Origin: Squalus acanthias
Lineage: Eukaryota
Assembly (NCBI GenBank): GCA_030390025.1
Contig: CM059432.1
Span: 52,888,001 to 52,952,000 of the forward strand
Reading direction: 5' to 3'
DNA length: 64,000 nt
This document shows positions 14,696 to 58,993 of the stretch, one piece after another; within the stretch, counting starts at the first letter, position 1, and the number at the start of each line of letters is the position of its first letter. Position numbers and translations under genes: made by a program. The notes under the pieces were generated by a model. That model ran no database searches, was not told the origin of the DNA, and was given only the letters and a program-made list of their open reading frames with translations.

Positions 14696-14960
14696 ATAAC
14701 ATAAATCTATCAATCACAATTTTGAGATTTTCAATTGATCTAGCCTCAACAACATTTTAGAGGAAGAGTTTTCCAGATTTCCACTATCCTTTATGTGAAG
14801 AAGTGCTTCTTGACATCACCCCTGAACGGCCGAGCTCTAACTTTAGGGTTATGCCCCCCCCAACCTTCCTGTTCTGGACTCCAACAGAGGAAATAATTTA
14901 TTTCCATCTCTAATATGATTAAATGATTTGATAAACACCGCAATTAGATCACCCCTTAAT

Positions 14961-17633
14961 TTTTATTCATTTATGGGATGTGGGCGTCGCTGGCAAGGCC
15001 AGCATTTATTGCCCATCCCTAATTGCCCTCGAGAAGGTGGTGGTGAGCTGCCTCCTTGAACCGCTGCAGTCCATGTGGTGAAGGTACTCCCACAGTGCTG
15101 TTAGGGAGTTCCAGGATTTTGACCCAGCAACGATGAAGGATCGGCGATATACTTCCAAGTCAGGATGGTGTGTGACTTGGGAGGGGAACTTGGAGGTGGT
15201 GGTGTTCCTATGCGCCTGCTTGTGGGTGGAAGAGGTTGCAGGTTTGGGAGGTGCTGCCTAAGAAGCCTTGGCGAGTTGCTGCAGTGCATCTTGTAGATGG
15301 TACACACTGCAGCCACCGTATGCGTGGAGATAGTGAATGTTTAAAGGTGGTGGATGGGGTGCTAATCAAGCGGGCTGCTGTCGAGCTTCTTCAGTGTTGT
15401 TGGAGCTGTACTCATCCAGGCAAGTGGAGAGTATTCCATCACACTCCTTACTTGTGCCTTGTGGATGGTGGAAAGGCTTTGGGGAGTCAGGAGGTGAGAC
15501 ACTCGCCGCAGAATACCTAGCCTCTGACCTGCTCTTGTTGCCACCATATTTATGTGGCTGGTCCAGTTAAGTTTCTGGTCAATGGTGACCCCCAGGATGT
15601 TGATGGTGGGGGATATGGCGATGGTAATGCCGTTGAATGTCATGGGGTGGTGGTTAGACTCTCGCTTATTGGAGATAGTCATTGCCTGGCACTTGTGTGA
15701 CGCGAATGTTACCTGCCACTTATCAGCCCAAGCCTGAACGTTGTCCAGGTCTTGTTGCATGCGGGCATGGACTGCTTCACTATCTGAGGAGTTGTGAATG
15801 GCACTGAACACTGTACAATCATCAGCGAACATCCCCATTTCTGACCTTATGTTGGAGGGAAGGTCATTGATGAAGCAGCTGAAGATGGTTGGGCCTAGGG
15901 CACTGCCCTGAGGAACTCCTGCAGCGATGTTCTGGGGCTGTGATGATTGACCTTCAACCACCACAACCATCTTCCTTTGTGCTAGGTATGACTTCAGCCA
16001 GTGGAGAGTTCCCCCCCCCCGATTCCCATTGACTTCAGTTTTACTAGGGCTCCTTGATGCCACACTCTGTCAAATGCTGCCTTGATGTCAAGGGCAGTCA
16101 CTCTCACCTCACCTTTGGAATTCAGCTCCTTTGTCCATGTTTGGACCAAGGCTATAACGAGGTCGGGAGCCAAATGATCTTGGCAGAACCCAAACTGGGC
16201 ATCAGTGAGCAGGTTATTGGTAAGTGCCGCTTGATAGCACTGTCGATAACACCTTCCATCACTTTGCTGATGATTGAGAGTAGACTGATCGGGCGGTATT
16301 TGGCCGGATTGGATTTGTCCTGCTTTTTGTGGACAGGACATACCTGGGCAGTTTTCCACATTGCTGGATAGATGCCAGTGTTGTAGCTGTACTGGAACAG
16401 CTTGGCTAGAGGCGCGGCTAGTTCTGGAGCACAAGTCTTCAGCACGATAGCCGGAATGTTGTCAGGGCCCATAGCCTTTGCTGTATCCAGGGTGCTCAGC
16501 CGTTTCTTGATATCACGTGGAGTGAATCGAATGGGCCGAAGAATGGCTTCTGTGATGGTGGGGACCTCAGGAGTAGGCCGATATGGATCATCCACTCTGC
16601 ACTTCTGGCTGAAGATGGTTGCAAACGCTTCAGCCTTGTCTTTTGCACTCACGTGCTGGGCTCCACCATCATTGAGGATGGGGATATTCATGGAGCCTTC
16701 TCCTCCAGTTAGTTGTTTAATGGTCCACCACCATTCACGACTGGATGTGGCAGGATGTGTTTTGATCTGATCCCTTGATTGTGGGATCACTTAGCTCCGT
16801 CTGTAGCATGCTGCTTCTGCTTTTTAGCATGCATGTAGTCCTGTGTTGCAGCTTCCCCAGGTTGGCACCTCATTTTTAGGTACGCCAGGTGCTGCTCCTG
16901 GCATGCTCTTCTACACTCCTTATTGAACCAGGGTTGGTCCCCTGGCTTGATGGTAATGGTAGAGTGAGGGATATGCCGGGCCATGAGGTTACAGATAGTG
17001 GTGGAATACAATTCTGCTGTTGCTGATGGCCCACAGTGCCTCATGGATGCTCAGTTTTGAGCTACCAGGTCTGTTCTGAATCTATCCCATTTAACACGGT
17101 GGTAGTGCCACACAACACGATGGAGGTTGTCCTCAGTGTGAAGACGGGACTTCGTCTCCACAATAACTGTGCGGTGGTCACTGCTACCAATATGGTCATG
17201 GACAGATGTATCTGCGACAGGTAGATTGGTGAGGACGAGATGAAGTATGTATTTCCCTCGTGTTGGTTCTCTCACCACCTGTCGCAGGTTATGGCAGCTA
17301 TGTCCTTCAGGACTCGGCCAGCTCGGTCAGTAGTGGTGCTACCGAGCCACTCTTGGTGATTGACATTGAAATCCCCTACCCAGAGTACATTCTGTGCCCT
17401 TGCTACTCTCCGTGCTTCGTCCAAGTGGTGTTCAACATGGAGGAGTACTGATTCATCTGCTGAGGGAGGGCAGTAGGTGGTAATCTGCAGGAGGTTTCCT
17501 TGCCCATGCTTGACCTGAAGCCATGAGACTTCATGGGGTCCGGAGTCAATGTTGAGGACTCCCAGGGCCACTCCTTCCCGACTGTATACCACTGTGCCGC
17601 CACCCCTGGTGGGTCTGTCCTCCCGGTGGGACG
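14961..17633 (-). mobile_element. APE-RT non-LTR retrotransposon (family X, copy 1, 5'-truncated, frameshifted)
   Basis: WVGDFN, SDH, ALDIKAAFDRVWH, GVPQGSALGP, MFADD motifs; tail GGGCAATAAATGCTGGCC; flanked by TAAT. Confidence 0.9.
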
Positions 17634-22111: not shown

Positions 22112-25100
22112 GGGAATGGCAGCATCGTGGTTATGTTACTGGACTAGTAATCCAGAGGAATAAAAAGCTAGTATCAGTAATGGTGACCATGAAACTACCG
22201 GATTGGCATTAAAAACCCATCTGGATCACTAATGTCCTTTAGGGAAGGAAATCTGCTGTCCTTACTGGGTCTGGCCTATGTGACTCCAGACCCACAGCAA
22301 TGTGGTTGACTCCTAACTGCCCTCTGAAATGGTCCAGCAAGCCACTCAGTTGTACCAAACCGCTACAAAAAATAAGATTAAAACCGGACGGACCACCGGC
22401 ATCAACTTAGTCACCGGCTTCAGACACAATACTACACCCAGCCCAGTTGACCCTGCAAAGTCCTCCTCACTAACATCTGGGGACATGTGCCAAAATTGGG
22501 AGAGCTGTCCCACAGACTAGTCAAGCAACAGCCTGACAGTCATACTCATAGAATCATACCTTTCAGCCAATGTCCCAGACTCCCCCATCACCATCCCTGG
22601 GTATGTCCTGTCCCACCAGCAGGACGGACCCACCAGAGGTGATGGCACAGTGGTATACAGTCGGGAGGGAGTGGCCCTGGGAGTCATAAGAACATAAGAA
22701 ATAGGAGCAGGAGGAGGCCATTTGGCCCATCGAGCCTGCTCTGCCATTCGATAAGATCTTGGCTGATCTGGTCTTGGCCTCAACTCCACTTTTCTGTCCG
22801 CTCCCCATAACCCTCGACTCTCTCATTGTTCAAAAATCTGTCCATCTCCACCTTAAACATATTCAATGACCCAGCCGCTACAGCTCTCTTGGGTAGAGAA
22901 TTCCAAAGATTCACAACCCTCGGAGAAGAAATTCCTCCTCATCTCAGTTATAAATGGGCGACCCCTTATTCTGAAACTATGCCCTCTAGTTCTAGATTCC
23001 CCCACGAGGGGAAACAACCTCTCTGCATCTACTCTGTCAAGCCCCCTCAGAATCTTATACGTTTCAATAAGATCACCTCTCATTCTTCTAAACTCCAATG
23101 AGTATAGGCCCAACCTGCTCAACCTTTCCTCATAATACAACCCCTTCATCTCAGGAATTAACCTAGAGAACCTTCATTGAACTGCCTCCAATGCAATGAT
23201 ACCCCTCCTTAAACATTGACTACGGACCCCATGAAGTCTCATGGCTTCAGGTCAAGCATGGGCAAGAAAACCTTCTGCTGATTACCACCTACTGCCCTCC
23301 CTCAGCTGAGGAGTCAGTACTCCTCCATGTTGAACACCACTTGGAAGAAGCACGGAGGATAGCAAGGGCACAGAATGTACTCTGGGTGGGGGACTTCAAT
23401 CTCCATCACCAAGAATGGCTTGGTAGCACCACTACTGATCGAGCTGGCCGAGTCCTGAAGGACATAGCTGCCAGACTGGGCCTGCGGCAGGTGGTGAGAG
23501 AACCAAAACGAGGGAAAAACCTACTTGAACTCATTCTCACCAATCTACCTGTCGCAGATGCATCTGTCCATGACAGTGTTGTTAGCAGTGACCACCGCAC
23601 ATGAGACGAAGTCCCGTCTTCACACTGAGGACGCCCTTCATTGGGTTGTGCGGCACTACCACCGTGATAAATGGGATAGATTCAGAACAGGTCTAGCAGC
23701 TCAAAACTGGGCATCCTTGATGTGCTGTGGGCCATCAGCAGCAGCAGAATTGTATTCCACCACAATCTGTAACCTCATGGTCCGGCATATCCCTCACTCT
23801 ACCATTACCATCAAGCCAGGGGACCGACCAAACAACCCTGGTTCAATGAGGAGTGCATAAAAGCATGCCAGGAGCAGCACCAGGCATACCTTAAAAATGA
23901 AGTGCCAACCTGGAGAAGCTGCAACACAGCGTGCTAAACAGCATGCTAGAGACAGAGCTAAGTGATCCCACAACCAACAGATCAGATCAAAGCTCTGCAG
24001 TTTTGCCACATCCAGTCGTGAATGGTGGTGGACAACTAAACAGAGGAGGAGGCTCCAAGAATATCCCCATCCTCAATGATGGTGGAGCCCAGCACGTAAG
24101 TGCAAAATATAAGGCTGAAGCATTTGCAATCATCTTCAGCCAGAAGTGCTGAGTGGATGATCCATCTCGGCCTCCTCCATCTGATCAAGAAGTGGCTGAG
24201 CGCACTGGATACAGCAAAGGCTATGGGCGCCGACAACATCCCGACTGGTGTGCTGAAGACTTGTGCTCCAGAACTAGTCACGCCTCCAGTCAAGCTGTTT
24301 TAGTACAGCTACAACACTGGCATCTACCCGACCATGTGGAAAACTGCCCAGGTATGTCTTGTCCACAAAAAAGGACAAATTCCATCCGGCCAATTACTGC
24401 CCTATCAGTCTACTCGCAATCATCAGCAAAGTGATTGAAGGCATCGTTGACAGTGCTAACAAGTGGCACTTACTCACCAACAACCTGCTCACCGATGCTC
24501 AAGTGTGTGTTCTGCCAGGACCACTCGGCTCCAGACCTCATTACAGCCTTGGTTCAAACATGGACAAAAGAGCTGAATTCCAGAGGTGAGGGGAGAGTGA
24601 CTGCCCTTGACATTAAGGCAGCATTTGACCGAGTGTGGCATCAAGGAGCCCGAGTAAAATTGAAGTCAATGGGAATCAGGGGGAAAACTCTCCACTGGCT
24701 GGAGTCATACCTAGCACAAACGAAGATGGTTGTGGTTGTTGGAGGCCAATCATCTCAGCCCCAGGACATCGCTGCAGGAGCTCCTCAGGACAGTGTCCTA
24801 GGCCCAACCATCTTCAGCTGCTTCATCAATGATCTTCCCTCCAACTTAAGGTCAGAAGTGGGGATGTTCGCTGATGATTGCACAGTGTTCAGTTCCATTC
24901 GCAACTCCTCAGATAATGAAGCAGTCCATGCCCTCATGCAGCAAGACCTGGATAACATTCAGGCTTGGGCTGGTAAGTGGCCCATCCAGGACAAATCAGC
25001 CCATTTGATTGGCACCCTATCCACCACCTTAAACATTCACTCCCTCCACCACCGGCGCACTGTGGTTGCAGTGTGTACCGTCTACAAGATGCACTTCAGC

Positions 25101-25445
25101 AACTGGCCAAGGCTTCTTTGTCAGCACCTCCCAAACCCGCAACCTCTACCACCTAGAAGGACAGGGGCAGCAGGCACATGGAAACACCATCACCTCCAAG
25201 TTCCTCCCCCCCACCACCCCCAAGTTACACACCATCCTGACTTGGAAATATAATCGCCGTTCCTTAATCGTCGCTGGGTCAAAATCCTGGAACACCCTCC
25301 AGCACTGTAGGAGTACCTTCACCAGAAGGACTGCAGTGGTTCAAGAAGGTGGCTCACCACCGCCTTCTCGATGGCAATTAGAGATGGGCAATAAATGCTG
25401 GCCTTGCCAGTGACACCCACATCCCAGGAACGAATTTAAAAAAAA
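22112..25445 (+). mobile_element. Family X LINE copy 2, with SINE-like head (B-box region deleted) and an internal deletion near 24980
   Basis: Starts GGGAATGGCAGCATCGTGGTTATG; APE and RT motifs; same 3' tail as the other copies. Confidence 0.9.
22686..23211 (-). mobile_element. CR1 3' fragment nested in family X copy 2
   Basis: ORF 22853-23149(-) LGLYSLEFRRMRGDLIETYKIL; interrupts host GGGAGTC|...AACATTGAC. Confidence 0.9.
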
Positions 25446-26334
25446 GCACAGGGTCCTCCATCTAGTATGAGGAAAAAGCTTCAGGATTTCCTGCCTTCGA
25501 ATAACAAAACCTAGTGGTGACCGGGAACCAACATTCTAGTAGTAGTTTTCAAAACCATTAAAAAAACCTAAAGCTGATTCCTGGTCACGGTTGAGAACTT
25601 GGCATTTCCTTAAGCAGAGTTGGGATTCTCTAAAAGAATACATCGTTATTTCTTTGGACCGGGGAGAGTCCAGCAAGGACTAGGTGTTCAGCCAGTCTGG
25701 TAATAAAAATGTAGCCAGGGGAGGCAAGAGGGGTAAATAGACATCAGGCAGGGAGCATAGTGAAGCAGAACAAGGAGATGGAAGCTGGGAAGACTCAAAG
25801 CTAAGTATATGATGGTATGGCTAAGTATAGTTTAGGCTTAGGTATAATAGGAAAGTGTTATAGGAAGGAAATTTGAATAACAACGTGCATGTACATGAAA
25901 AGGACTATATATATTTTTATGCAGATGCGGCTTCCATTCAAAACACCAGTGATCAATACAACTCATCAGTTCAAACCACTCCCCATATAATGCACTAGCC
26001 TATATGAAGAGCAGCTACACAGAAATAAGACATTGTGCCAATTTACATGAGGAAGTGAATTACAGTTCAAATCTAACTGGCATATAATCAACAAACAAGG
26101 CTATCCAACTGCAACTTTTTCTCTCAACTGACCAGGGGCCCTAGCCTTCCTAGTTGAAGCACTTGATGAACACTCTTGTAATAAGGGTCCTAGAAGTGAC
26201 AAACTGACATCACACCTCGGTTTGGGGGAAGGAGAAGGGATGAAAGAGTCAAGATTTTCACTCCTGATTGCTTTCCAATGATTCTTTCTGGAAAGTGTGC
26301 TTGTGAACATTGTGTGGACCAGATCAGGTTACTG

Positions 26335-27346
26335 GAGGAAGGTATACAGTGGTGTTCCCCAGGGGTCGGTACTAGGACCACCGCTTTTCTTGATATATAT
26401 TAATGACTTGGACTTGGGTGTACAGGGCACAATTCAAAACTTGCAGATGACACAAAACTTGGAAATATAGTGAACAGTGAGGAGGATAGTGATAGACTTC
26501 AAGAAGACAGGCTGGTGGAATGGGCAGGCACGTGGCAGATGAAATTTAACGCTGAAAAGTGCGAAGCAATACATTTTGGTAGGAAGAACGAGGAGAAGCA
26601 ATATAAACTAAAGGGTAGAATTCTAAAGTGGGTGCATGAATAGAGACACCTGGGGGTATATATGAACAAATCGTTGAATGTTGCAGGGCAGGTTGAGAAA
26701 GTGGTTAAAAAAGCATACGGGATCCTGGGCTTCATAAATAGAGGCATAGAGTACAAAAGCAAGGAAGTTATGATGAACCTTTATAAAACACTGGTTCAGC
26801 CTCAACTGGAGTATTGTGTCCAATTCTGGGCATGGCACGTTAGGAAGGATGTGAAGGCCTTTGAGAGGATGCAGAAAAGATTTACAAGAATGGTTCCAGG
26901 GATGAGGGACTTCAGTTACGTAGATAGACTGGAGAAGCTGGGGTTGTTCTCCTTAGAGCAGAGAAGGTTGAGGAGAGATTTGATAGAGGTGTTCAAAATC
27001 ATGAGGGGTCTTACAGAGTAGATAGAAACTGTTCCCATTGGCAGAAGGATTGAGAACCAGAGGACACAGATTTAAGGTGATTGGCAGAAGAACCAAAGAT
27101 GACATGAGGAAAAACTTTTTTACGCAGCGAGTGGTTAAGATCTGGAATTCACTGCCTGAAAGGGTGGTGGAGGCAGATTCAATTGTGACTTTCAAAAGGG
27201 AATTGGATAAGTACCTGAAGGAAAAAAATTTGCAGGGCTACGGGGAAAGGGCAGGGAAGTGGGACTAGCTGAAGTGCTCTTGCAGAGAGCTGGCACGGGC
27301 TCGACGGGCTGAATGACCTCCTTCTGTGCTGTAACCATTCTATGAT
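26335..27346 (+). mobile_element. 5'-truncated CR1 LINE
   Basis: [17 protein letters not shown] start; ORFs 26662-27021 and 27038-27268; tail AACCATTCTATGAT. Confidence 0.9.
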
Positions 27347-28004
27347 GTGGTCATTTTATACAAATATCAGTAAGAAGGTTAATAGAAAAATGTTGTGGCT
27401 CTGCAAACTTTAGGTATGGATAGTGGGTGAGTGTTTCCCCCCTCAAATATTCAGTACTCCAAGGGTATTCTTTACTTAAGAGCAGCAACTTAAAAAAAAT
27501 CGTTAGAGAATCAGAAAATAAACATTTGTACTCCATCCAATTTCAAAATGGTCTCTTTTTGATATTTTGTATCGCTTGTTTATGTGTGCATTATACACTG
27601 AAGTCTTATTAGCTCACAACAGACAGAATCCCATATTCGAATTCGTGTAAACTGGACAGGAATCCTTAGTGTGTAGATGATATTCTAACACTTGATTCTT
27701 AAGAGGTCACCTTCAAATACTATTCTGCAGTAATACTAACACATTTGTCATCACTGCGGTTTTACAGGATGCTAGTCTGAAAAGGACAGTGCAACAATGC
27801 AAGTAAGGCACAGTGTAACTACGAGCTCAGTAACCAAGAACACAGTCTGCTTTAAAAGGTGCTCTTAGTTTACACCAACTACAGCCTACCTTTCCAACTT
27901 TAAAAAAAAATTCCAGCAGTACATTGCATTTGTGTTCAATTACTAAAAATTGAAAACAACTCTCCCAATGTTTTTAGTAGGTAAATGCTTCATTTGAGGC
28001 AATA

Positions 28005-28478: not shown

Positions 28479-28558
28479 CTTGTTGCAAAGATTTGAACCA
28501 AGCCAAAACTTGCCCTTCCATTTTCATCAGTTTTCTGCTGTTGTGGTGCTGGTGACAG
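28479..28558 (-). CDS. SMCHD1: SMCHD1 internal coding exon, 80 nt
   Basis: CCCTTCAG|CTG ... ACA AG|GTATGG; LSPAPQQQKTDENGRASFGLVQIFAT(R), versus recalled human [27 protein letters not shown]. Confidence 0.93.
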
Positions 28559-30197: not shown

Positions 30198-33100
30198 GGG
30201 AATGGTAGCACAGTGGTTATGTTACTGGACTAGTAATCCAGAGGCCTGGACTGATCCAGAGACACGAGAGTTCAAATCCCAACACGGCAACTGGGGAATT
30301 TAAATTCAGTTAATTAAATAAAACTGGAATAAAAAGCTAGTATCAGTAATGCTGACCATGAAACTATCGGATCGTCATAAAAACCCATCTGGTTCACTAA
30401 TGTCCTTTTTAGGGAAGGAAATCTGCCATCTTTACCTGGTCTGGCCTATATGTGACTCCAGACCCACAGCAACGTGGTTGACTCTTGACTGCCCTCTGAA
30501 ATGGCCCAGAAAGCCACTCAGTTACACAACCGCTACAAAAAACAATAATAAAACCGGACGGACCACCCGGCATCGACTTAGGACACAACGGCACAACCAG
30601 CCCAGTCCACCCTGCAAAGTTCTCCTCACTAACATCTGGGGACTTGTGCCAAAATTGGGAGAGCTGTCCTACAGACTAGTCAAGCAACAGCCTGACAGTC
30701 ATACTCACAGAATTATACCTTTCAGCCAATGTCCCAGACTCCCCCATCACCATCCCTTCACCACCACCGGCAGGACAGACCCAACCAGAGGTGGCGGCAC
30801 AGTGGTATACAGTCGGGAGGGAGTGGGCCTAGGAGCCCTCAACATTGACTATGGACCCCATAAAGTCTCGTGGCTTCAGGTAAAGCATGGGCAAGGAAAC
30901 CTCCTGCTGATTACCACCTACCATCCTCCCTCAGTTGATGAATCAGTACTCCTCCATGTTGAACACCACTTGGAAGAAGCACGGAGGATAGCAAGGGCAC
31001 AGAATGTACTCTGGGTGGGGGACTTTAATCTCCATTTCCAAGAGTGGCTCGGTAGCACCACTACTGACTGAGCTGGCCGAGTCCTGAAGGACATAGCTGC
31101 CAGACTGGGCCTGTGACAGGTAGTGAGAGAACAAAAACGAGGGAAAAACCTACTTGACCTCGTCCTCACCAATCTACCTGTCGCAGATGCATCTGTCCAT
31201 GACCGCATTGGTAGCAGTGACCACCACACAGACTTGTTCACACTGAGGACACCCTCCATCGTGTTGTGTGGCACGACCACTGTGCTAAATGGGATAGATT
31301 CAGAACAGATCTAGCTGCTCAAAACTGGGCATCCATGAGGCGCTGTGGGCCATCAGCAGCAGCAGAATTGTATTCCACCACAATCTGTAATCTCATGGCT
31401 CGGCATATCCCTCACTATCATTACCATCAACCCTGGTTCTATGTGGAGTGCGTAAGAGCAGGCCAGGAGCAGCAGCAGGAGTACCTAAAAATGACTTACC
31501 AACCTGAGGAAGCTGCAAAACAGGACTAAATGCATGCTAAATAGCGAAAGCAGCATGCTATGGACAGAGCTAAGCGATCCCACAATCAACGGATCAGATC
31601 AAAGCTCTGCAGTCCTGCCACATCCAGTCGTGAATGCTGGTGGACAATTAAACAACTAACGGGAGGAGGCTGCTCCATGAATATCCCCATCCTCAATGAT
31701 GGCGAAGCCCAGCACGCGAGAGCAAAAGACAACGCTGAAGCGTTTGCAACCATCTTCAGCCAGAAGTGCTGAGTGGATGATCCATCTCGGCCTCCTCCTG
31801 AGGTCCCCACCATCACAGAAGCCAGTCTTCAGCCAATTTGATTCACTTCACGTGATAACAAGAAACGGCTGAGCGCAGTGGGTACAGCAAAGGCTATGGG
31901 GCTCTGACAACATCCCGGCTGTCGTGCTGAATACTTGTGCTCCAGAACTAGTCGGGCCTCTATACAAGCTGTTGCAGTACAGCGACAACTCTGGCATCTA
32001 CCAGACAATGTGGAAAACTGCCCAGGTGCGTCCTGTCCACAAAAAGCAGGACAAATCCAATCCGGCCAATTATTGCCCCATGAGTCTACTCTCAATCATT
32101 AGCAAAGTGATGGAAGGTGCCGTCGACAGTATCATCAAGCGGCACTTACTCACCGATGCTCAAGTTTGGGTTCCGCCAGGACCACTCGGCTCCCGACCTC
32201 ATTACAGCCTTGGTTCAAACATGGACAAAAGAGCTGAATTCCAGAGGCAAGGTGAGAGTGACTGCCCTTGACATCAAGGCAGCATTCGACCGAGTGTGGC
32301 ATCAAGGATCCCTAGTAAAACTGAAGTCAATGGGAATCAGGGGGAGAACTCTCCACTGACTGGAGTCATACCTAGCACAAACGAAGATGGTTGTGGTTGT
32401 TGGAGGCCAATCATCTCAGCCCCAGGAGATCGCTGCAGGAGTTCCTCAGGGCAGTGTCCTAGGCCCAACCATCTTCAGCTGCTTCATCATAAGGTCAGAA
32501 GTGGGGATGTTCACTGATGATTGCAATGTTCAGTTCCATTTGCAACACCTCAGTTAATGAATCAGTCCATGCCCGCATGCAGCAAGACCTTGACAACATT
32601 CAGGCTTGGGCTGAAAAGTGCCAAGTAAGATTCGCGCCACACAAGTGCCAGGCAATGATTATCTCCAACAAGCGAGACTAACCACCACCCCTTGACATTC
32701 AACAGCATTACCATCGCCGAATCCCCCACCAGCATCCTGGGGTCACCACTGACCAGAAACTTAACTGGACCAGCTACAAATATTGTGGCAACAAGAACAG
32801 GTCAGAGGCTGGGTATTCTGCGAGTGTCTCACCATCTACAAGGCACAAGTCAGAGGTGTGATGGACTACTCTCCACTTGACAAGATGAGTGCAGCTCCAA
32901 TAACTTTCAAGGAGCTCGACACCACCCAGGACAAAACAGCCCGATTGACTGGCGATCCATCCACCACCTTAAACATTCACTCCCTCCACCACCGGCGCAC
33001 CGTGGCTGCAGTGTGTACCATCTACAAGTTGCACTGCAGCAACTCACCAAGGCTTCTTCGACAGCACTTCCCAAACCCACGACCTCTACCACCTAGGAGA

Positions 33101-33374
33101 CGACGTGCAGCAGGCGCATGGGAACACCATCACCTGCAAGCTCCCCTCCAAGTTACACACCATCCCGAGTTGGAAATATATCACGGTTCTTTCATTGTCG
33201 CTGGGTCAAAATCCCGGAACTCCCTCCCTAACAGCACTATGGGAGTATCTTCAGCACATAGACTGCAGCGGTTCAAGAAGGCTGCTCACTACCACCTTCT
33301 CAAGGGCAATTAGGGAAGGGCAATAAATGCTGGCCTTGCCAGCGACACCCACATCCCAGGATCGAATAAAAAAA
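30198..33374 (+). mobile_element. Family X LINE copy 3, apparently full length, with a tRNA-derived head
   Basis: A box, B box and SINE-like body, then APE (LLTNIWGL, WVGDFN, SDH) and RT; A-rich tail; several stops and frameshifts. Confidence 0.92.
30206..30279 (+). promoter_or_regulatory. Type 2 RNA polymerase III internal promoter (A and B boxes)
   Basis: A box TAGCACAGTGG 30206-30216; B box GTTCAAATCC 30270-30279. Confidence 0.7.
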
Positions 33375-33599
33375 GTTCATCGCCTTCTGCTTTATTGTAA
33401 AGAGATGTTCTCTTGGCAGGCATCTGGGGCAACTTCCAAACCCAAGGTTATTTGAAAAATTATGATTAGCGAAAGAAAAATTAGAGTGCCCATATTTTAC
33501 TGCATCAGAGCAAAATGCACCAACTGGACAAATTGGCTTCATTTTTCTACTGGGACTACAGCAAGGTTGAATATTTTCCTGGTGTTTAGAAATGGAATG

Positions 33600-33915
33600 A
33601 CTGTTGGCGGAAGGGTCGAGAACCAGAGGACACAGATTTAAAGTGATTGGCAACAGAACCAAAGGCGACATGAGAAAAAACTTTTTTTACGCAGCGAGTC
33701 GTTAGGATCTGGAATGCACTGCCTGAAAGGGTGGTGGAAGCAGACTCAATAGCGGCTTTCAAAAGGGAATTGGATAAGTACCCGAAGGGAAAAAAATTGC
33801 AGGGCTACAGGGAAAGGGTGGGGGCGTGGGACTAGCTGAAGTGCTCTTGCAGAGAGCTGGCACGGGCTCGACGGGCCGAATGGCCTCTTTCTGTGATGTA
33901 ACCATTCTATGATTC
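33600..33915 (+). mobile_element. CR1 3' fragment
   Basis: Highly similar to 27030-27346. Confidence 0.85.
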
Positions 33916-34975
33916 TCTCAAATAAGGCTGTCTATGCAGCTAAAATGGGGGGGAGGGGGGGGGGGATGACCATGGCCACTTAGCTATTGCATACTGTTGA
34001 ACACATGACCTACTGCTTCTTCGGTTTGAGTAGTGATTTATTAATTTAAAATTGGAAGTTGAAACGATAATGAAGAATGGAAATGTTACACGAGAGAACA
34101 AAAACTGTAGATTGACTCTTATAATATTCTTCATCAGAAACCATAAACAAGTGGAAAAAATCATATTTACATTTGACTACAACTATATGTATCTTTTATT
34201 TCCAACATATTTCTGAATTGCAGCTATCAAATGCACTTTTCATAGGATATACAGCACAGAAACAGGCCATTCGGCCCAACCAGTCCAGGCCGGCGTTTAT
34301 GCTCCACTCGAGCCATTGAGCCCAGTTAATTGAATAGATAATACAGTAACTTCTCTCAAAAACACTTGTTGGAAAAAGTAACTAGGGAGTCCAATTGGAT
34401 AAAAACAAGAAGTTACCAAGTCCATCCACCCCACTTCAATATTAAATTGAACCGAATAGACAATTTAAAATCCTGTAGGAATTTCATTATACTCAAGTCA
34501 TTTCATACACATTACTTCCTTCATACTACTTCACTTGTGGTGGGAAGCAAGCCGATAAATAAAGACTATGGAGGGGCACATTTATATCCAAGTCCCACCA
34601 ATTTACATCGATCTCAGGCTGTTAATTCCAATAGGCCTTGGTGTCCTGATTTAGGATTTATCCACCAACGAGGCACTTTCCAAAATATAGGCTCAGAAAA
34701 CACAAAACAGAAGAAACAGAAGGAATATAAGCACAAATAGGACTACATTTCTTGGATTTTGGAGGCTGAATCACCAGGGCTCAGGCTAGACACTTCTGTT
34801 ATATACTATCTGTATTGTAAAACATGCAACATTTTAGAAAAACATCCTTAACGTGTGCATGTTGAAAAAGCTGTAGCATATAATTTTTTCCTATATTTGT
34901 GCATCATCATAACCATGTTAACGGTACTATAAATTCTAAATTTTGCAGCCAATATAGCATCAGTAAATTCCTTAC

Positions 34976-35101: not shown

Positions 35102-35619
35102 CTAAAAATAAAAGAAGTACAGCTAAGGCACATACACCACAAAAGACTTTAATTTTTCCTTAATACCAACTTTCAAATAAGTGCCACACAAAAATCAACT
35201 GATTGTCACACTAACTATCTTCAATGTAGTTTATTAAGTTATCATAGTTCAACCTCCAAAAACAAATCAATAATCCATCATCCAAATGTGTATAAGGACT
35301 TCAAAGTGCACCAATGAATGCAGGATTTGCTGCTCAGCCCTGTACAAAACATTGTCCTTTAACTGTAGCGCTGAAGGGGGTGGCATTGGAGGATCAAGCC
35401 AGAGGAAGAGAGTGTTACGAGAATGGGAGCTTTGTATGAGAATTATGAACTATATTCAATTCTATAATTTACCTCTGTACCTAATAAAGTTCATTGTTTG
35501 TACTTATTTTTAAATGATAAAATGTTTTTTGAAAGTTTTGTTTTGGGTTAGCTAGGTGTTTGATCACCAAATAGTAAGGAATTCACACAAGTTACATCTT
35601 TCCCATATGGAAGGTTCAC

Positions 35620-38600
35620 TCTCAATGACGATGACAAATAGAGATAAAATGGGTTTGATCTAATAGCCATTACAGAGACGTGGTTGCAAAGTGACCAAGG
35701 TTAGGAACTAAATGTTCCAGGGTACTTGACTTTTCGAAAAGACAGGCAGAATGGAAAAGGAGGGGGAGTAGCCCTGATAATAAAGGATGACATAAGGACA
35801 GTAGAGAGAAAGGATCTCGGCTCGGAAGATCAGGAAGTAGAATCAGTATGGGTGGAGATAAGGAATAACAAGGGGCAGAAAACACTGGTGGGAGTAGTAT
35901 ATAGGCCCCCTAACAGTAGCTATACCGTTGGACAAAGTATTAATGAAGAAATAGTAGGAGCTTGCAAAGGTAACACAATAATCGTGGGGGACTTTAATCT
36001 TCATATAGACTGGACAAATCAAATTGGCAAAGGTAGTCTGGAGGACGAGTTCATGGAATGCATTCGGGACAGATTCCTAGAACAATACGTCATGGAACTA
36101 ACCAGGGAACAGGCTATTTTAGATCTTGTATTGTGTAATGAGGCAGGGTTACTTAGCAATCTCAGTAAAGGATCCTCTGGGGCAGAGTGATCATAACATG
36201 ATAGAATTTCACATTAAGTTTGAGAGTGACTTGCCTAAGTCCAAAACTAGAGTCTTAAACTTAAATAAAGCCAATTACATAGGTATGAGGGGCGAGTTGG
36301 CTAAGGTAGATTGGAAAAATAGATTAAAAGTTATGGTGGTAGATAAGCAGTGGCTAGCATTTAAAGAAATATTCATAATTCTCAACAAAAATACATTCCA
36401 TTGAGAAACAAAAACTCCACGGGAAAAGTGATCCAACTGTGGCTAACTAAAGAAGTTAAGGATAGCATTAGATTGAAAGAAGCAGCTTATAATGTTGTGA
36501 AGAATAGTAGTAAGCCTGAGGATTGGGAGAGTTTCAGAAACCAGCAAAGGATGACCAAAACATTGATAAAAAGGGAAAAAATAGAATGAAAGAAAACTAG
36601 CAGGAAATATAAAAGCAGGTTGTAAGAGCTTTTACAAGTATGTAAAAAGGAAGAGAGTAGCAAAAATAAACATAGGTCCCTTCGAGGCTGAGACAGGAGA
36701 AATTATTATGGGGAATAAGGAAATGGCAGAAACTTTAACCAACTATTTTGTATCTGTCTTCACAGTAGAAGACACAAAAAGCATACCAAAAATGGTGGGG
36801 AACCAAGGGTCTAATGAGGGTGAGGAACTTAACGTAATTAATATAAGTAGAGAAAAAGTACTAGAGAAACTAATGGGACTAAAAGCTGACAAATCCCCTG
36901 GACCCGACGGCCTACATCCTAGGGTTCTAAAAGAGGTGGCTGAAGAGATAGTGGATGCATTGATTTTGATCTTCCAAAATTTCCTAGATTCTATAACGGT
37001 CCCAGCGGATTGGAAGTTCGCAAATGGAACACCGCTATTCAAGAAAGGAGAGAGAAAACAGGGAACTACAGGCCAGTTAGCCTGACATCAGTCGTCAGGA
37101 AAATGCTGGAATCCATTGTTAAGGAAGTTGTATCAGGGCACTTAGAAAATCATAATATGATTAGGCAGAGTCAACATGGTTTTATGAAAGGGAAATCATG
37201 TTTGACAAATTTATTAGAGTTTTTTGAGGATGTAACTAGCAGGGTAGATAAAGGGGAACCAGTGGATGTAGTATATTTGGATTTCCAAAAGGCATTTGAT
37301 AAGATGCCACATAAAAGGTTATTACACAAAATTAGGGTTAATGAGATTGGGGGTAATATAGTAGCATGGATAGAGGATTGATTAACGGACAGAAAACAGA
37401 GAGTAGGGATAAACGGATCTTTTTCAGGTTGGCAGGCTGTAATTAGTGGGGTGCCGCAAGGATCAGTGTCGGGGCTGCAGCTATTTACAATCTAGATTAA
37501 TGACCTCGATGAAGTTTGCTGACGGTACAAAGCTAGGTGGAACAGTAAGCTGTAAGGAGAACACAAAGGGCTGGATTTTGATACTGGGGCGGGTTGGGGT
37601 CGTGTCATCCACTTTTCATGTTATCCACCCGACTGCAATTGGATGTGGGAGATTGATGCAATTTTCACCTAATTGGGCAATTGAGTTCCAGCATGTGGGA
37701 ACCCATGAACCAATTAGTGTTTTCAGTCTGAAAGTCACCTCTGATGATGTCATCATTGCTGCTGCATTGAAGGTCTGCAAAGACTGCCTGGCCTTTGCTG
37801 AGAGGGGACCTGGATGCAAAATGAGCAGCAGCAGCCCTAAGTCTACTCCCAGATATTTTTACACAAGAGAGAGAGAGATCCAGCCAGCCAAATGTGCTCC
37901 CGCCAGGTTTCACAATCGTGGTTCAGAACAGGTGTGCTTCACGTAGAACAAGGGTTAAAATCACAAAGGCCTTTCAAAATGGCATTAGAGAGCCAATTTA
38001 GTGCTTGTTAAGGGCCTTAACAGCCTATCCCGTCTCTTAAAGGCGGGACGCAGTCGGGACCAGCAGACACGATTTCATGAAAATTGCGTGGAGGCGGACT
38101 TGTGCCCGCCCGCCAGTTTTCGCAATTTTAACCCCCCACACGCCTCCAAACCCGCCTCCACGGGTCAATGAAAATCCAGCCCAAAGAGTCTGCAAAGGGA
38201 TATAGATAGACTAAGTGAGTGGGCAGTAAGGTGGCAGATGGAGTATAATGTAGGAAAATGTGAGGTTATTCGCTTTGGTAAGAAGAATTGAAAAACAGAA
38301 TATTTTTTAAATGGCGAGAAACTTTCAAATGTTGGTGTTCAGAGAGGTTTGGGTGTCCTCGTGCAAGAAACACAGAAAGCTAGCATGCAGGTACAGCAAG
38401 CAATAAGGAAGGCAAATGGCATGTTGGCCTTTATTGCAAGGGGGTTGGAGTATAAGAGTAAAGAAGTCTTGCTACAATTGTACAAGGCCTTGGTGAGACC
38501 ACACCTGGAGTACTGTGCACAGTTTTGGTCTCCTTATCCAAGTAAGGAAATACTTGCCTTGAAGGCAGTGCAACCAAGGTTCACTAGACTGACTCCTGGG

Positions 38601-39063
38601 ATGAGAGGGCTGTCCTATGATGAGAGATTGTGTAGAATGGGCCTATACTCTCTGGAGTTTACAAGAATGAGAGGTGATCTCATTGAAACATACAAGATTC
38701 TGAAGGGGATTGACAGGGTAGATGCTGAGAGGTTGTTTCTCCTGGCTGAAGTGTCTAGAACTAGGGGGCATAGTCTCAGGATAAGGGGTAGGCCATTTAA
38801 GACTGAGATGAGGAGGAATTTCTTCACTCAGAGGGTTGTGAATCTTTGGAATTCTCTGCCCCAGAGGGCTGTGAATGCTGAGTCTTTGTGTATATTCAAG
38901 GCTGAGAGAGATAGATTTTTGGACTCTAGGGGAATCAAGGGATATGGAGATCGGGCGGGAAAGTAGAGTTGAGGTAGAAGATCAGCCATGATCTTATTGA
39001 ATGGCAGAGCAGGCTCGAGGGGCCGTATGGCCTACTCCTGCTCCTATTTCTTATGTTCTTATG
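35620..39063 (+). mobile_element. CR1 LINE with nearly complete but broken ORF2 (APE and RT)
   Basis: YRPPNS, VGDFN, SDH, KSPGPDG, YLDFQKAFDK, LEYCAQFWSP; tail TTCTTATGTTCTTATG; interrupted by a MITE. Confidence 0.92.
37568..38182. mobile_element. PIF/Harbinger-type MITE nested in CR1 RT
   Basis: Perfect 12-bp TIR GGGCTGGATTTT/AAAATCCAGCCC, TSD AAA; removing it restores ENTKSLQRDID. Confidence 0.9.
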
Positions 39064-39165
39064 ACATATCACACTTATGATGCGGAGATGCCGGTGTTGG
39101 ACTGGGGTGGACAAAATTGAGAGGTCGCACAACACCAGGTTATAGTCCAACAGTTTTATTTGAAA

Positions 39166-39208
39166 TCACAAGCTTTCGGAGCTATCGATTTGCTCCTTCC
39201 TCAGGTGA
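39166..39208 (-). ncRNA. Minimal hammerhead ribozyme motif (left arm, sense to SMCHD1 pre-mRNA)
   Basis: Exact reverse complement of 39475-39517. Confidence 0.75.
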
Positions 39209-39275
39209 AGTAAATTAGATACAGAATCTCCAAAGCATATATAGATAGAAAACAAAGCATGTGTACTTTACAATT

Positions 39276-39376
39276 GCAGACCAATAAATTAAATCATCCT
39301 GACTATGCAGACCAATAAATTAAATCATCCTGACTATGCAGACCAATAAATTAAATCATCCTGACCAATAAATTAA
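39276..39376. repeat. 31-bp tandem repeat (about 3 units) at the palindrome centre
   Basis: Unit GCAGACCAATAAATTAAATCATCCTGACTAT at 39276, 39307 and 39338 (partial), plus a CAATAAATTAA remnant. Confidence 0.95.
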
Positions 39377-39474
39377 ATAGTCAGGATGATTTAATTTATT
39401 GGTCTGCAATTGTAAAGTACACATGCTTTGTTTTCTATCTATATATGCTTTGGAGATTCTGTATCTAATTTACT

Positions 39475-39517
39475 TCACCTGAGGAAGGAGCAAATCGATA
39501 GCTCCGAAAGCTTGTGA
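39475..39517 (+). ncRNA. Minimal hammerhead ribozyme motif (right arm)
   Basis: TCAC-CTGAGGA-A-GGAGC-AAATCGATA-GCTCC-GAAA-GC-TT-GTGA. Confidence 0.75.
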
Positions 39518-39971
39518 TTTCAAATAAAACTGTTGGACTATAACCTGGTGTTGTGCGACCTCTCAATTATATCACACTTACCCAGAGAACTTGGTATAGG
39601 CTGGGAACAACCAAGGACCACTAAGCATGCAGAGATACTGCTGCATTTTAACCAGCTAAAAGCTTGCAGCTTTCCCAGCACAAGGCACTAAGCTTGTCCA
39701 GCTAAAACCACCATGTCAGGGCATTCATGATGGGTTATGTGTAGCCAATTGATGGGACAAAATTCCAACTAGTTAATTGTCAATAGTACTCCAAACCTGC
39801 CAAACTCAGGTTACTGGATTACCAATGCCATCTATAATGCAACTGCTGGCAAGAAAATTACTCTCAAATTCACAGTACTTGTGAGCAACTTCAAAAGTGA
39901 CACTTACCTAAATAAAAAGATTTAAAAGAATACTCCAATACTTTACGTAATCTAACTACTCAGGTTCTTAC

Positions 39972-45700: not shown

Positions 45701-48222
45701 CTAAAATGAAAAAGGGAAATAATGATATTTTATATTCAGGAGGAACCTTAAGAATTTATCCTCGACCTGTCATAAAAAAATGACCTCTTGTAGTTATGGT
45801 GAAAATATCAACGAGCACAGCATTATGTTACAATCAAAACTTGCTGCTGTGCCACCATACGTCATCTTTTCTGACCCTTGAGCTTTGAAAGTTTGTCCAC
45901 CTATGTACATCTTGGAACAAAGCAACACAAATCAATAGAATTTAATAGTTTTTATTCTGTTGTGCTGACCAAAGTAATGGGCAAACATTAAAATAGTTAA
46001 CTAGCTGAAGTATAGACTGCCTCATTGTTTGAATGAGATGCAACTTATATACGTACACTAGGAATTTCAGTCAACCACAAGGAAACCGAGGCAGACCCGT
46101 CTTTAAGTCATGCAATGTCACCTTCCCCCAATTTGCTATAAAAATATACCCGATTTGGACCGTGCTTTTACCTCTGACTGAAGGGAGCAGCACTGAGTCC
46201 CCAAGTAACATCAAGAGCACTGAAACTTACAATAAAGAAAAAAAATTGCTTCAAGCAACAGGGGTAGTTTAAAAAACCCACTAGAGTTAGGGCAAGAGAG
46301 AATTTCAATATAAACAAACACGTGAACAAGTATTAGGTATGAAGTGTCTGGTATTCGCTGGAGGATAAAATGAGTTGACCAGAAACAAGCTACCAGGTAG
46401 AACTCAGGAACCCCATACCAAGTGGTGAAAAATAAATGATGCATTGGTCAGAGAGAGATGTTGCTAACCACCAAAACAAAAAACTGCATCAAAAACACAT
46501 GTTCTTCCGATAAACATTTATAGGAAATACAAGAACTGCACAATTATGAATGTCATATGTACAGCCAACACTGCTACTGCAACTAGCAAGCCACTCAGTT
46601 GTACCAAACCGCTATGAAAAACTATAACAATAAAATCGGACGGACCACCCAGCTTCAACCTAGGCACCAGATTAAGACACGACAAATGCACACCCAGCCC
46701 AGTCAACCCTGCAAAGTCCTCCTCACTAACAACTGGGGACTTCTGCCAAAATTGGGAGAGCTGTCCCACAGGCTAGTCAAGCAACAGCCTTAAGTAGTCA
46801 TACTCTCAGAACCATACCTTTCAGCCAAAATCCCAAACTCTTCCACCACCATCCTTGGGTATGTCCTGCCCCACCAGCAGAACAGACCCACCAGAGGTAG
46901 CGGCACAGTGGTATAAAGTTGGGAGGGAGTGGCCCTGGGAAAGCTCAACATTGACTCCGGACCCCATGAAGTGTCATGGCATTAGGTCAAACACAGACAA
47001 GGAAACCTCCTGCTGATTACCACCTACCATCCTCTTTCAGCTGATGAATCAGTACTCCTCCATGCTGAACACCACTTGGAAGAAGCACGGAGGGCAGCAA
47101 GGGCACAGAATGCACTCTGGTTGGGGGCTTCAATGTCCATCACCAAGTGTGGCTCAGTAGCACCACTACTGACTGAGCTGGCCGAGTCCTGAAGGGCATA
47201 GCTGCCAGACTGGGCCTGCAGCAGGTGGTGAGAGAACCAACATGAAGGAAAAACCCACCTGACCTCATCCCCACCAATCTACCTGTCGCAGATGCAGTTG
47301 TCCATGACAGTATTGGTAGCAGTGACCACTGCAATGTCCCTGTGGAGACAAAGTCCCATCTTCACACTGAGGACACCCATCATGTTGTGTGGGATAGATT
47401 CAGAACAGATCTAGCAGCTCAAAACTGGGCATCCATGAGGCGCTGTGGGCCATTAGCAGCAGAACTGTATTCCACCACAATCTAACCTCATGGCTGGGCA
47501 TATCCCTCACTCTAACATTACCATCAAGCTACGGTACTAACCCTGGTTCAATGAGGAGTGTAGAAGAGCATGTCAGGAGCCGCACCAGGCATACCTAAAA
47601 ATGAGATGCCAACCTGGATAAGTTACAACACAGGACTACATGCATGCTAAACAGCGGAAGCAGCATGCCAACAGAAACAGCGAAGCGATCCCACAACCAA
47701 CGAATCAGATCAAAGCTCTGCAGTCCTGCCACATCCAGTCGTGAATGGGGGTGGACAATTAAACAACTAACAAAAGGAGAAAGCTCCATGAACATCCCCA
47801 TCCTCAATGATGGCGGAGCCCAGCACGTGAGTGGAAAAGACAAGGCTGAAGTGTTTGCAACCATCTTCAGCCAGAAGCGCCGAATGGATGATCCATCTTG
47901 GCCTCCTCCTGAGGTCTACACTATCCCTAAGCCAGTCTTCAGCCAATTCAATTCACTCCACGTATATCAAGAAACTACTGAGTGCACTGGATACAGCAAA
48001 GGCTATGGGCCCTGACAACATCGCGGCTGTCGTGCTGAAGACTTGTGCTTCAAAACTTGCTGGGCATCTAGCCAAGCTGTTCCAGTACAGCTACATCACT
48101 GGCATGTACCCGACAAAGTGGAAAATTGCCCAGGTATGTCCTATCCACAAAAAGCAGGACAAATCAAATCCGGCCAATTACTGCCCTATCAGTCTACTCT
48201 CAATCAGCAGCAAAGTGATGGA

Positions 48223-48768
48223 AAAAGAAAGAAAAAAACTTGGATTTATATAGCGCCTTTCATGACCACTGGACGTACCAAAGCCCTTCACAGCCAATGA
48301 AGTACTTTTTGAAATGTAGTCACGATTGCAACGTAGGAAATGTGGTAGCCAATTTGCGCACAGCAAGCTCCCACAAACAGCAATGTGCTAATTACGAGAT
48401 AATCTGTTTTAGTGATGTTGATTGAGGGATCAATATTGGCTAGGACTCCTGGTATAACTTATCTTTGAATAGTGCCATAGGATCTTTTACTTCCACCTGA
48501 GAGAGCAGACAGGGCCTCGGTTTAACATCAGCCATAATCTTATTGAATGGTGGAGCAGGCTCGAGGGGCCATATAGCCTACTTCTGCTCTTATTTCTTAT
48601 GTTCTTAACATCTCATCCGAAAGACAGCAGCTCCGACAGTGCAGCACTCTCTCAGTACTGGAGTGTCAGCCTAGATTTCTGTGCTCAAGTCCCTGGAGTG
48701 GGACTTGAACCCACAACCTTCTGACTCAGAGGCGATGGTGCTACCAACTGAGCCATGGCTAACGCACC
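48223..48768 (-). mobile_element. DeuSINE-like tRNA SINE nested in family X copy 4
   Basis: Colinear with 12228-12650; interrupts host GTGATGGAA|GG.GTCGT with GAA duplicated. Confidence 0.85.
48530..48604 (+). mobile_element. 75-bp CR1 3' end nested in the SINE
   Basis: Matches 38985-39060; TSD TTAACATC at 48522-48529 and 48605-48612. Confidence 0.85.
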
Positions 48769-49533
48769 AGAAGGGGTCGTTGACAGTGCTATCAAGCAGC
48801 ACTTACCAATAACCTGCTCACTGATGCTCAGTTTGTGTTGCATCAGGACCACTTGGCTCCAGACCACATTACAGCCTTGGTCCAAACATGGACAAAATAC
48901 CTGAATTCCAGAGGTGAGAACAGAGTGACTGCCCTTGACATCAAGGCAGCATTTGACCAGAGTCTGGCATGAAGCAGCCCTCGTAAAATTGAAGTCAATG
49001 GGAATCAGGGGGAAAATGCTCCACTGGCTGGAGTCATACCTAGCACAAAGGAAGATGGTTGTGGTTTTTGGAGGCCAATCAGCTCAGCCCCAGGACATCG
49101 CTGCAGGAGTTCCTCAGGGCAGTGTCCTAGACCCAACCATCTTCAGCTGCTTCATCAATGACCTTCCCTCCTTAAGGTCAGAAGTGGGGATGTTTGCTGA
49201 TGATTGCAGTGTTCAGTTCCATTCACAACTCCTCAGATAATGAAGCAGTCTGTGCCCGGATGCAGCAAGACCTGGACAACATTCAGGCTTGAGCTGATAA
49301 GTGGCAAGTAACATTTGCATCACACAAGTGCCAGGCAATGACTATCTCCAACAAGAGAGAGTCTAACCACCCCCCCTTGACATTCAATGGCATTACCATC
49401 CTCTAATCCCCCACTAACATCCTGGGGGTCACCACTGACCACACACTTAACTGGACCAGCCACATAAATACTGTGGCTACAAGAGCAGGTCAGAGGCTAG
49501 GTATTCTGCAGCAAGTGACTCACCTCCCGACTC

Positions 49534-49672
49534 ACAGAAACATAGAAAAATAGGAGCAGGAGTAGGCCATTCGGCCCTTCGAGCCTGCTCTGCCATTCAG
49601 TATGATCATGGCTGATCCTCTATCTCAATACCATATTCCCGCTCTCTCACCATACCCCTTGATGCCTTTGGT
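49534..49672 (-). mobile_element. CR1 3' end nested in family X copy 4
   Basis: ATAGGAGCAGGAGTAGGCCATTCGGCCC tail; TSD GACTC. Confidence 0.85.
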
Positions 49673-50849
49673 GACTCCCCAAAGCCTTTCCACCATCTAC
49701 AAAGTACAAGTCAGGAGTGTGATGGAATACTCTCCACTTGCCTGGATGAGTGCAGCTCCAACACTCAAGAAGCTTAACACCATCCAGGACAAAGCAGCCG
49801 GCTTGACTGGCACCCCATCCACCTTAAACATTCACTCCTTCCACCACCGGCGCACTGTGGCTATGTGTGTACCATCTACAAGATGCACTGCAGCAACTTG
49901 CCAAGGCTTCTTTGACAGCACTTCCCAAACCTGTGACCTCCACCACCTAGAAGGACAAGGGCTGCAAGTGCATGGGAACACCACCACCTAAAGTTACACA
50001 CCATCCTGACTTGGAAATATATCGCTGTTCCTTCAGCGTCGCTGGGTCAAAATCCTCGAACTCCCTCCCTAACAGCACTGTGGGAGTACCTTCACCACAC
50101 GGACTGCAGCTCTTCAAGAAGGCGGCTCACCACCACCTTCTCAATGGTAATTAGGGATGGACAATAAACGACAGCCTTGACAGCGATGCCAACATTCCGT
50201 GAATTAATTAAAAAAAAACTATGAGGCATGATTCTGAACAAATCTTTATACACAATAGATGGGGGTGAAATCACCGTACCAAAATGGTAGTGAATTTTTG
50301 AAAGGAATAATGCCTCGATTAATTCTCTCTCTCCCCCCCCCACCCCCGGACCCAGGTGAATGAGTAAATCCTAATTTTGGATGCAAAATATCAAATTAAA
50401 ACCAAACATTTGCTACCATTTTCTTCAACATAACTGAACCCCATTCCTTTGATATGAACAACTTATATCAAACAGATGGCGAGATTGACAGATGTCAAGA
50501 CCTGCTTCAGAAAATCATATGCATGTACTTAGGCTTGCATTTTATTTGCAATCATAAACATTGAACACAAGCTCCATTGTTTTAACAGAATAGATATGTC
50601 CACATTAATAGTCACACAGATGGTTCTATGGTACAGCCAGAAAAAGTGGAAGGCTGCATTTGCATGGCTATTTTTTCATGCAGTTACCATTAGAGAAAGC
50701 CTGTTTGGAAGGCATGCTGTTTTTAACCTGGTGTACAAGTAGAACCCCCGTATGCTTTCAGAAGTGGATATTTTAATAACAAAACAGCACTAAAAATACT
50801 ACCAGAATCATAATTCTTAAAAATAAATTTCAAAACAAACTCAACTTAC

Positions 50850-58799: not shown

Positions 58800-58993
58800 T
58801 GTGGTAACACAATACAGCTTCCTGTGACTCGAACTTTATTGCATCACTTCCTGTGATTAGTCCAGGATAAATACTGGACTGATCAGTTGGATCCTGGAGA
58901 GGCATAGAGTAAGACCTCTTTTGTATGTAGCACCTTTTTAGTTGATTAAAGCTTACTTTAAGTTCACCACGCGTAAGGCTCATTCTTACGACA
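58800..58993 (+). mobile_element. 194-bp solo LTR
   Basis: TGTGGTAA...TTACGACA termini; 5-bp TSD TTGTG; TATA-like ATAAATA and ATTAAA in promoter then polyA order. Confidence 0.75.

Follow-up and report, generated by a model that had tools for sequence, protein, structure and literature searches.

Zenon LINEs of sharks and rays open with a tRNA-type head and may be coding retrotransposons transcribed by Pol III

A stretch of 64,000 nucleotides of Squalus acanthias DNA (the window) contains four copies of one LINE family, with pairwise identities of 87-90 %. The element is the elasmobranch Zenon LINE of the CR1 group, as represented in the text and supplement of Stuart et al. (2026; PMC13343379). 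It opens with a tRNA-type head carrying predicted Pol III A and B boxes, and its sense strand is nearly free of the T4 and TVTTT signals. The Zenon family and its lack of ORF1 were already known; the tRNA nature of the head has apparently gone unremarked. The explanation that we favor with moderate confidence is that of an ORF1-less, poly(A)-tailed Zenon with a captured SINE head, the full-length RNA of which would be made by Pol III and translated in a non-canonical manner.

Copy 3 is a 3.2-kb APE-RT LINE with a poly(A) end, and it shows the following layout:

30198..33374, + strand: copy 3, a full-length, decayed elasmobranch Zenon LINE with a tRNA-type head; about 93 % identical by eye to the published SquAca_Zenon-1 over the first ~325 nt
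30198..30290, + strand: tRNA-like head, in which a partial duplicate of the anticodon arm comes after the arm itself; the formal anticodon is AGU
30206..30216, + strand: predicted Pol III A box, TAGCACAGTGG, at +9 from the start of copy 3 (sequence scan)
30268..30279, + strand: predicted Pol III B box, with GTTCAAATCC at 30270 (sequence scan)
30291..30523, + strand: SINE-like body, near-identical in five shark and ray species among the published consensuses; its 3' end is the departure point of the SINE-form joints
30501..30509, + strand: ATG near the body end, a candidate initiation region; copies 2 and 3 have CAG as the third codon, where copy 4 and the published consensuses have TAG
30524..30621, + strand: A-rich linker and basic N-terminal segment, running in frame into the endonuclease and open in copy 4; aligned by tblastn to the relative P0010 from residue 2
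30622..33313, + strand: single APE endonuclease and reverse transcriptase frame, broken by stops and frameshifts
33314..33374, + strand: short 3' UTR with AATAAA at 33322, a stem-loop, and poly(A)

The first bases of copy 3, at 30198, are GGGAATGG. Head and body together form a SINE-like unit of 320 nt, in which three body motifs lie at 30379, 30413, and 30452, and the LLTNIWGL codons of the endonuclease follow at 30622, 424 nt from the start. The A box at +9, the B box, the body, and the endonuclease motif, which an initial annotation of this DNA had placed about 420 nt from the start, could thus all be located. The window contains 12 B-box-like words when both strands are counted, and only that of copy 3 is paired with an A box. 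The match to the tRNA model of Rfam is weak (30199-30258; 19 bits, below the gathering score of 29; E 0.31), and ARAGORN reported no tRNA gene in the 64-kb window, the head of copy 3 being missed too. Copy 3 therefore has the head of a SINE2 element, tRNA-like and with A and B boxes, albeit with an Rfam score below gathering; at 3.2 kb and with an APE-RT frame, it falls outside the limits of that class (<1 kb, non-coding). Pfam searches yielded Exo_endo_phos in copy 3, below the cut-off, and RVT_1 in copies 1 and 2, and tblastn aligned copy 3 piecewise to residues 2-977 of the 983-amino-acid P0010. Folding of the 3' UTR compared with shuffled sequences gave z values of -0.99, -2.96, and 0.12 for copies 3, 1, and 2, respectively. 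Head, body, and junction folded no better than shuffles (z -0.55, 0.28, and 0.52), and no IRES-like structure is claimed for this reason.

In the available text of PMC13343379, Zenon is described as an ORF1-less, poly(A)-tailed clade of the CR1 group that is present in elasmobranchs, coelacanth, and hagfish. Copy 3 likewise combines APE endonuclease and RT in one ORF, lacks ORF1, and has only 424 nt ahead of the endonuclease, and all four copies in the window finish in a short UTR and an A-run. The suggestion in the initial annotation that the head stands in the place of an ORF1 finds no support, as Zenon elements of all phyla are without ORF1 (PMC13343379). The body motif of the window matched seven rows of the supplement, namely all seven elasmobranch Zenon consensuses, from five species: Zenon-1 of CarCar, HypSab, RhiTyp, and ScyCan and Zenon-1, Zenon-2, and Zenon-3 of SquAca. 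The same head, body, and junction open all seven when the first 400 nt of each row are compared; these consensuses had been built with an additional round of 5' extension (PMC13343379). Comparison of six B-box words with the first 400 nt of all consensus rows gave five matches, every one in an elasmobranch Zenon. The A and B boxes are recognizable across the five species, and the arm between them varies. By eye, the head was not seen in the three hagfish and coelacanth Zenon rows, the starts of which are unrelated and rich in T-runs. The elasmobranch Zenon-1 rows (3,244-3,314 nt) resemble copy 3 in head, body, junction, length, APE-RT frame, absence of ORF1, and poly(A), and the sequence of copy 3 differs from them by species and decay only. 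The text and supplement of PMC13343379, as far as available, contain no mention of "tRNA" and the text none of "promoter"; Zenon is described there without remark on a loss of terminators, a Pol III promoter, or the derivation of the head from a tRNA. As to prior description, which the initial annotation wished to have checked, the family is thus known as Zenon and the head lies inside the published consensus, the nature of the head being unremarked in that source.

In an RT tree of 40 rows, constructed without a named Zenon RT, the element joined a whale-shark protein (99/98) in a clade of 15 rows together with a lancelet protein and marine relatives, and the canonical CR1 of the window fell outside this clade. 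The initial annotation had likened the body and 3' tail to those of SlmI- and MetaSINE-type SINEs. By eye, the body bears no likeness to the available alignments of BivaMeta-SINE1 and BivaMD-SINE1, and the 66-bp Meta domain was not seen in it; membership among the MetaSINEs was rejected on this comparison. SlmI is listed in Ohshima's table with a tRNA-Leu head, but with RSg-1 as its partner.

The three other copies in the window are the following:

14960..17629, - strand: copy 1, 5'-truncated within the endonuclease; 2,670 nt long and without any T4 run
22112..25444, + strand: copy 2, sharing its 5' start with copy 3; B box lost through an 83-nt deletion, foreign 528-nt insert at 22684-23211, and a deletion of ~300 nt near the 3' end
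about 46583..50219, + strand: copy 4, 5'-truncated ~20 nt before the body end and hence headless; foreign inserts at 48224-48769 and 49525-49690

The inserts nested in copies 2 and 4 (22684-23211, 48224-48769, and 49525-49690) consist of younger CR1 3' fragments and SINE-like pieces. None of the four copies has an intact ORF, and no convincing target-site duplication was seen at any of them. Two frameshifts, a 2-nt gap at 30693 and an extra base at 32162, are common to copies 2 and 3, as are rare substitutions at 30988, 31030, and 31952. The extra base and the three rare substitutions are missing from 87-99 % of the family depth in four mapped sequencing runs, the 2-nt gap not being among the rows shown. 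The flanks of copies 2 and 3 differ. They are separate insertions from one source that was already frameshifted, which is a sign that defective full-length copies move in trans. Because of these shared changes, the two copies count as one lineage of evidence and not as two. The initial annotation was right that copy 2 starts with the same GGGAATGG (at 22112), but its B box is gone and it is not independent of copy 3; copy 4 does retain the junction of body and ORF, but it starts ~20 nt before the body end and has no head. At 18505-18581 (- strand), a decayed solitary tRNA-like head akin to that of Zenon was observed, lacking the repeated arm and with no body after it; it resembles the shorter head of the published ray consensus.

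Part of the element was present in 20 of the 24 listed sequencing runs (9 studies). Mapping was done with contigs of four runs, three of the DNA type (X1, X3, and X7) and one presumed to be RNA, the higher head depth of which was left uncounted. Depth jumps at the head boundary by 785-fold in X1, 141-fold in X3, and 116-fold in X7, a jump that shows the unique flank and is not a copy number. The head is almost certainly the true 5' end of the family. At the other end, loose ends were seen at 33374 in the mapped runs. Four of 15 among the joints listed run from 30520-30524 to 33284-33318, and such joints occur in all four runs. This shows that a short form composed of head, body, and tail exists, i.e., a SINE that shares both ends with the LINE and that would fall within the size and coding limits of SINE2 elements. 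The fixed 5' breakpoint of these joints suggests that the body end is a module border. In wider searches, no match to a 21-nt body motif turned up among contigs from viruses, genomes, and metagenomes, scanning of the viral and genome contigs with protein patterns revealed no relative, and a weak search for homologues of the N-terminal frame found none among 507 candidates.

The shortest working Pol III terminators are TTTT and TVTTT (PMC8466645). As Pol III stops at these sequences, a Pol III unit of 3.3 kb should be without them. Copies 1 to 4 contain 0, 2, 1, and 1 T4 runs, or 0.35 per kb. Canonical CR1-type LINE copies of at least two subfamilies in the window (35600-38990, + strand; fragments at 7600-8850, 14136-14700, 26300-27360, 33585-33916, 40700-41700, and 58900-62600) served as a T-run control: the neighboring canonical CR1 has 18 T4 runs in 3.4 kb, and seven CR1 pieces in the window have 5.3 per kb. 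When T4 and TVTTT sites are taken together, the copies have 0, 3, 3, and 5 in sense versus 16-26 in antisense. All 11 sense sites are private to one copy, save one CpG site in copies 2 and 4, from which it follows that the source element had no terminator sites and that those of the copies are post-insertion mutations. For comparison with other LINEs, 80 loci were fetched and the 64 with an ORF of at least 400 amino acids were kept; the lowest of these has 4.1 T4/TVTTT sites per kb.

For TTT, the four-copy majority has an observed/expected ratio of 0.24 (6 versus 25) and the single copies have ratios of 0.33-0.50; the minimum and median of the controls (n=64) are 0.72 and 1.17. Under a first-order null, the ratio is 0.43-0.67 (control minimum, 0.84), under a synonymous null 0.27-0.33 (control minimum, 0.62), and the TTT share of Phe codons is 0.09-0.17 (control minimum, 0.35); the set of eight pieces in the TTT tests overlaps between copies. 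No other run is as strongly depleted as TTT in any of the copies, and on the four measures TTT falls outside the range of the 64 controls. Copy 1 on its own has 3 TTT versus 10.8 expected (P 0.002), with P 0.16 under the synonymous null. The T4 deficit alone is non-significant under dinucleotide shuffles, which retain the TT deficit (P 0.18-0.55 per copy). Only two of the 19 loci in the tree, L001 and L002, lie near the clade of the element, and the closest relatives are not among the controls. L001 has a TTT ratio of 1.13 and 20 T4 runs, and L002 a TTT ratio of 0.85. No head and no A or B boxes were present upstream of L001, the nearest relative with upstream DNA; upstream A/B boxes were also lacking in the 64 control loci, many of which are without their 5' ends. 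ARAGORN gave 0 genes in 43 of 43 loci, a weak blank as this program missed the Zenon head too. Among the full-length relatives counted, the lancelet protein P0007, a close Zenon-like relative, has 1.5 % Phe, below all 39. The depletion of terminators provides independent support for the Pol III idea.

The same figures bear on another reading, in which the captured SINE head is an ordinary Pol II 5' UTR or promoter and the T-run deficit reflects codon bias or a tendency to avoid decay signals rich in U. LINEs are regarded as Pol II units (PMC10886601), the coding strand of the element is T-poor (20 %) with C-ending codons dominating, and ATTTA is absent from the four-copy majority. Under the synonymous null, the coding pieces are low in AAA as well (0.52-0.64; lowest control, 0.68), and codon bias or an avoidance of runs in general may therefore account for part of the signal; over whole copies, the AAA ratio of the majority is normal (0.99). 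Codon bias does not account well for a depletion that is strongest for TTT in every copy and exceeds that of all 64 controls on four measures, nor does a Pol II 5' UTR for A and B boxes that stay recognizable in five species while the intervening arm changes. This reading is considered unlikely.

In the sequence of the four-copy majority, 247 codons separate the endonuclease start from the next Met, which lies past the endonuclease domain, and a product begun there would thus be without endonuclease. No stable in-frame AUG was found ahead of the endonuclease. In copy 4, no stop interrupts the stretch between the body-end TAG and the endonuclease. Copy 2 carries ATG-x-CAG at this site, in frame up to a 1-nt deletion, and the frame of copy 3 is shifted. 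In the published rows, judged by eye, three of the five species have the body-end ATG-x-TAG in the frame of the endonuclease, RhiTyp and SquAca being the exceptions. A conserved-looking ATG after the body in these rows was rejected as a start: its frame is not that of the endonuclease, and ATA stands in its place in all three copies of the window that cover the site. The candidate modes of starting would be read-through, re-initiation, or use of a near-cognate codon; cap-independent translation has been proposed for L1Tc (PMC3383444).

The lack of a standard start is also what would be expected if labor were split, that is, if Pol III makes the full-length RNA that is copied while the protein comes, in trans, from Pol II read-through transcripts of other copies, the element being a very long SINE that still carries an ORF. 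The terminator deficit is explained equally well in this manner, copies 2 and 3 stem from a frameshifted source, and deleted Zenon subfamilies of 2,886 and 3,096 nt in PMC13343379 retain the head. Intact ORF2 copies are rare: the six rows available give 3/612, 1/1419, 1/294, 0/2313, 0/59, and 0/396, with intact copies in three of the six (PMC13343379). Yet an ORF used only in trans should decay, and the Zenon consensuses of the five species are >84 % identical with the EN and RT domains kept (PMC13343379); moreover, a Pol II transcript would share the missing AUG. The maintenance of a near-complete frame in these consensuses suggests selection in cis, tying the copied RNA to the translated RNA, and a strict division of labor is judged improbable. 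With respect to the autonomy claimed in the initial annotation, the rare, predicted intact ORF2 copies lend weak support for the family, but not for the copies in the window, all four of which are broken.

Chance adjacency or a one-off chimaera, in which truncated LINE copies would have gained a SINE at their 5' end by insertion or fusion, can point to the single independent head-bearing lineage in the window and to the existence of a SINE form of the head, but it is very improbable, as the head-body-junction arrangement recurs in seven of seven consensuses from sharks and a ray (which refutes it unless these are assembly artefacts), copy 4 retains the junction, and the terminator deficit spans the whole ORF. 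The unit of ~3.2-3.3 kb is thus a mobilized one, as the initial annotation proposed.

Under the preferred explanation, a Pol III-transcribed coding LINE, a tRNA-derived SINE would have contributed its head and body in place of the ancestral Zenon 5' UTR, a template switch in the course of reverse transcription being the simplest route. TFIIIC/TFIIIB would read the internal A and B boxes, and Pol III would transcribe all 3.3 kb and halt at the first T-run of the flanking DNA. The RNA would be translated without a cap or a standard AUG, either by read-through or re-initiation at the body-end ATG-x-TAG or from a near-cognate start. The protein would then insert this RNA through target-primed reverse transcription, starting at the 3' stem-loop/poly(A), and every full-length copy would in this way come with its own promoter. 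The SINE form would be moved in trans, as would defective full-length copies such as the one that gave rise to copies 2 and 3. Full-length transcription by Pol III, which this explanation shares with that of split labor, is likely on the sequence evidence. That the Pol III RNA doubles as the mRNA of a self-mobilizing element would be about an even call, or slightly better; it counts against a coding Pol III unit that Pol III products are normally short and non-coding (PMC10886601). The chances seem evenly balanced for the complete picture of a self-mobilizing coding retrotransposon that has a 3.3-kb Pol III mRNA, a captured SINE promoter, a terminator-purged ORF, and neither cap nor standard AUG, persists in sharks and rays, and is the source of, or shares modules with, its own SINE.

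Several known systems resemble the element in part. Other Zenons, i.e., those of hagfish, coelacanth, and Lepidoptera, Persaeus (PMC6740152), and bivalve CR1-Zenon (PMC11481361), share with it the clade, the single ORF, poly(A), short derivatives, and the partnership with tRNA-SINEs. The 5' ends of the hagfish and coelacanth elements, however, are ordinary UTRs (PMC13343379), Persaeus, a deleted form of a lepidopteran Zenon, is described as being without tRNA homology or a Pol III promoter (PMC6740152), and the bivalve SINE and CR1-Zenon share the tail alone (PMC11481361), unlike the two ends shared by the elasmobranch short form. In Bov-tA/Bov-A/Bov-B and SINE2-1_ACar/Vingi-2_ACar, a tRNA head with a Pol III promoter is likewise fused to LINE sequence with a LINE tail, but these fusions are short and non-coding, whereas the Zenon head sits on a whole coding element (PMC5786205, PMC4494074). 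As far as these two sources are available, they state that SINEs cannot encode protein and name RTE and Vingi only as origins of SINE middles. R2 and L1Tc with HDV-like ribozymes offer a precedent for proposing cap-independent translation of a LINE, but their 5' ends arise by ribozyme cleavage, in contrast to the internal Pol III promoter proposed here (PMC3383444). The TRIMp3 elements Cassandra, Helenus, and Ajax also have a small-RNA-derived Pol III promoter outside the SINE class; they differ in being of the LTR type, non-autonomous, and at most 1,263 bp in length (PMC10886601). A tRNA-headed coding LINE was not encountered in any report in the literature searched, outside the scope of which were the sequences in Repbase, Dfam, and SINEBase and some supplements. 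Some Bov-B and Ingi families are said to carry 5' SINE pieces; the literature searched yielded no report of these.

Three further features were observed in the window. A tandem array at 19927-21129 has a 29-nt unit, 41.8 copies, and 94 % matches and yields long spurious ORFs. An 80-nt stretch at 28479-28558 (- strand) with AG/GT borders is a possible host exon; it had no match among solved structures. At 39110-39573, a 197-nt inverted repeat (99 %) with a central 31-nt tandem repeat may be a recent fold-back or an assembly feature.

In conclusion, the element belongs to Zenon and appears to work as a LINE that uses the promoter of a SINE; being long and coding, it is itself not a SINE, and judged by eye it is not a MetaSINE. 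In the textbook split, LINEs are Pol II units that code for protein and SINEs are short, non-coding Pol III units (PMC10886601, PMC5786205). If the preferred explanation is true, this division would be broken by a vertebrate LINE that is abundant, has a Pol III promoter, and has an ORF free of terminators, and modules would move from SINE to LINE. The family would also allow a test in nature of whether RNA made by Pol III can function as mRNA and, with its consensus sequences being public, would provide a compact 3.3-kb single-ORF element for retrotransposition assays.
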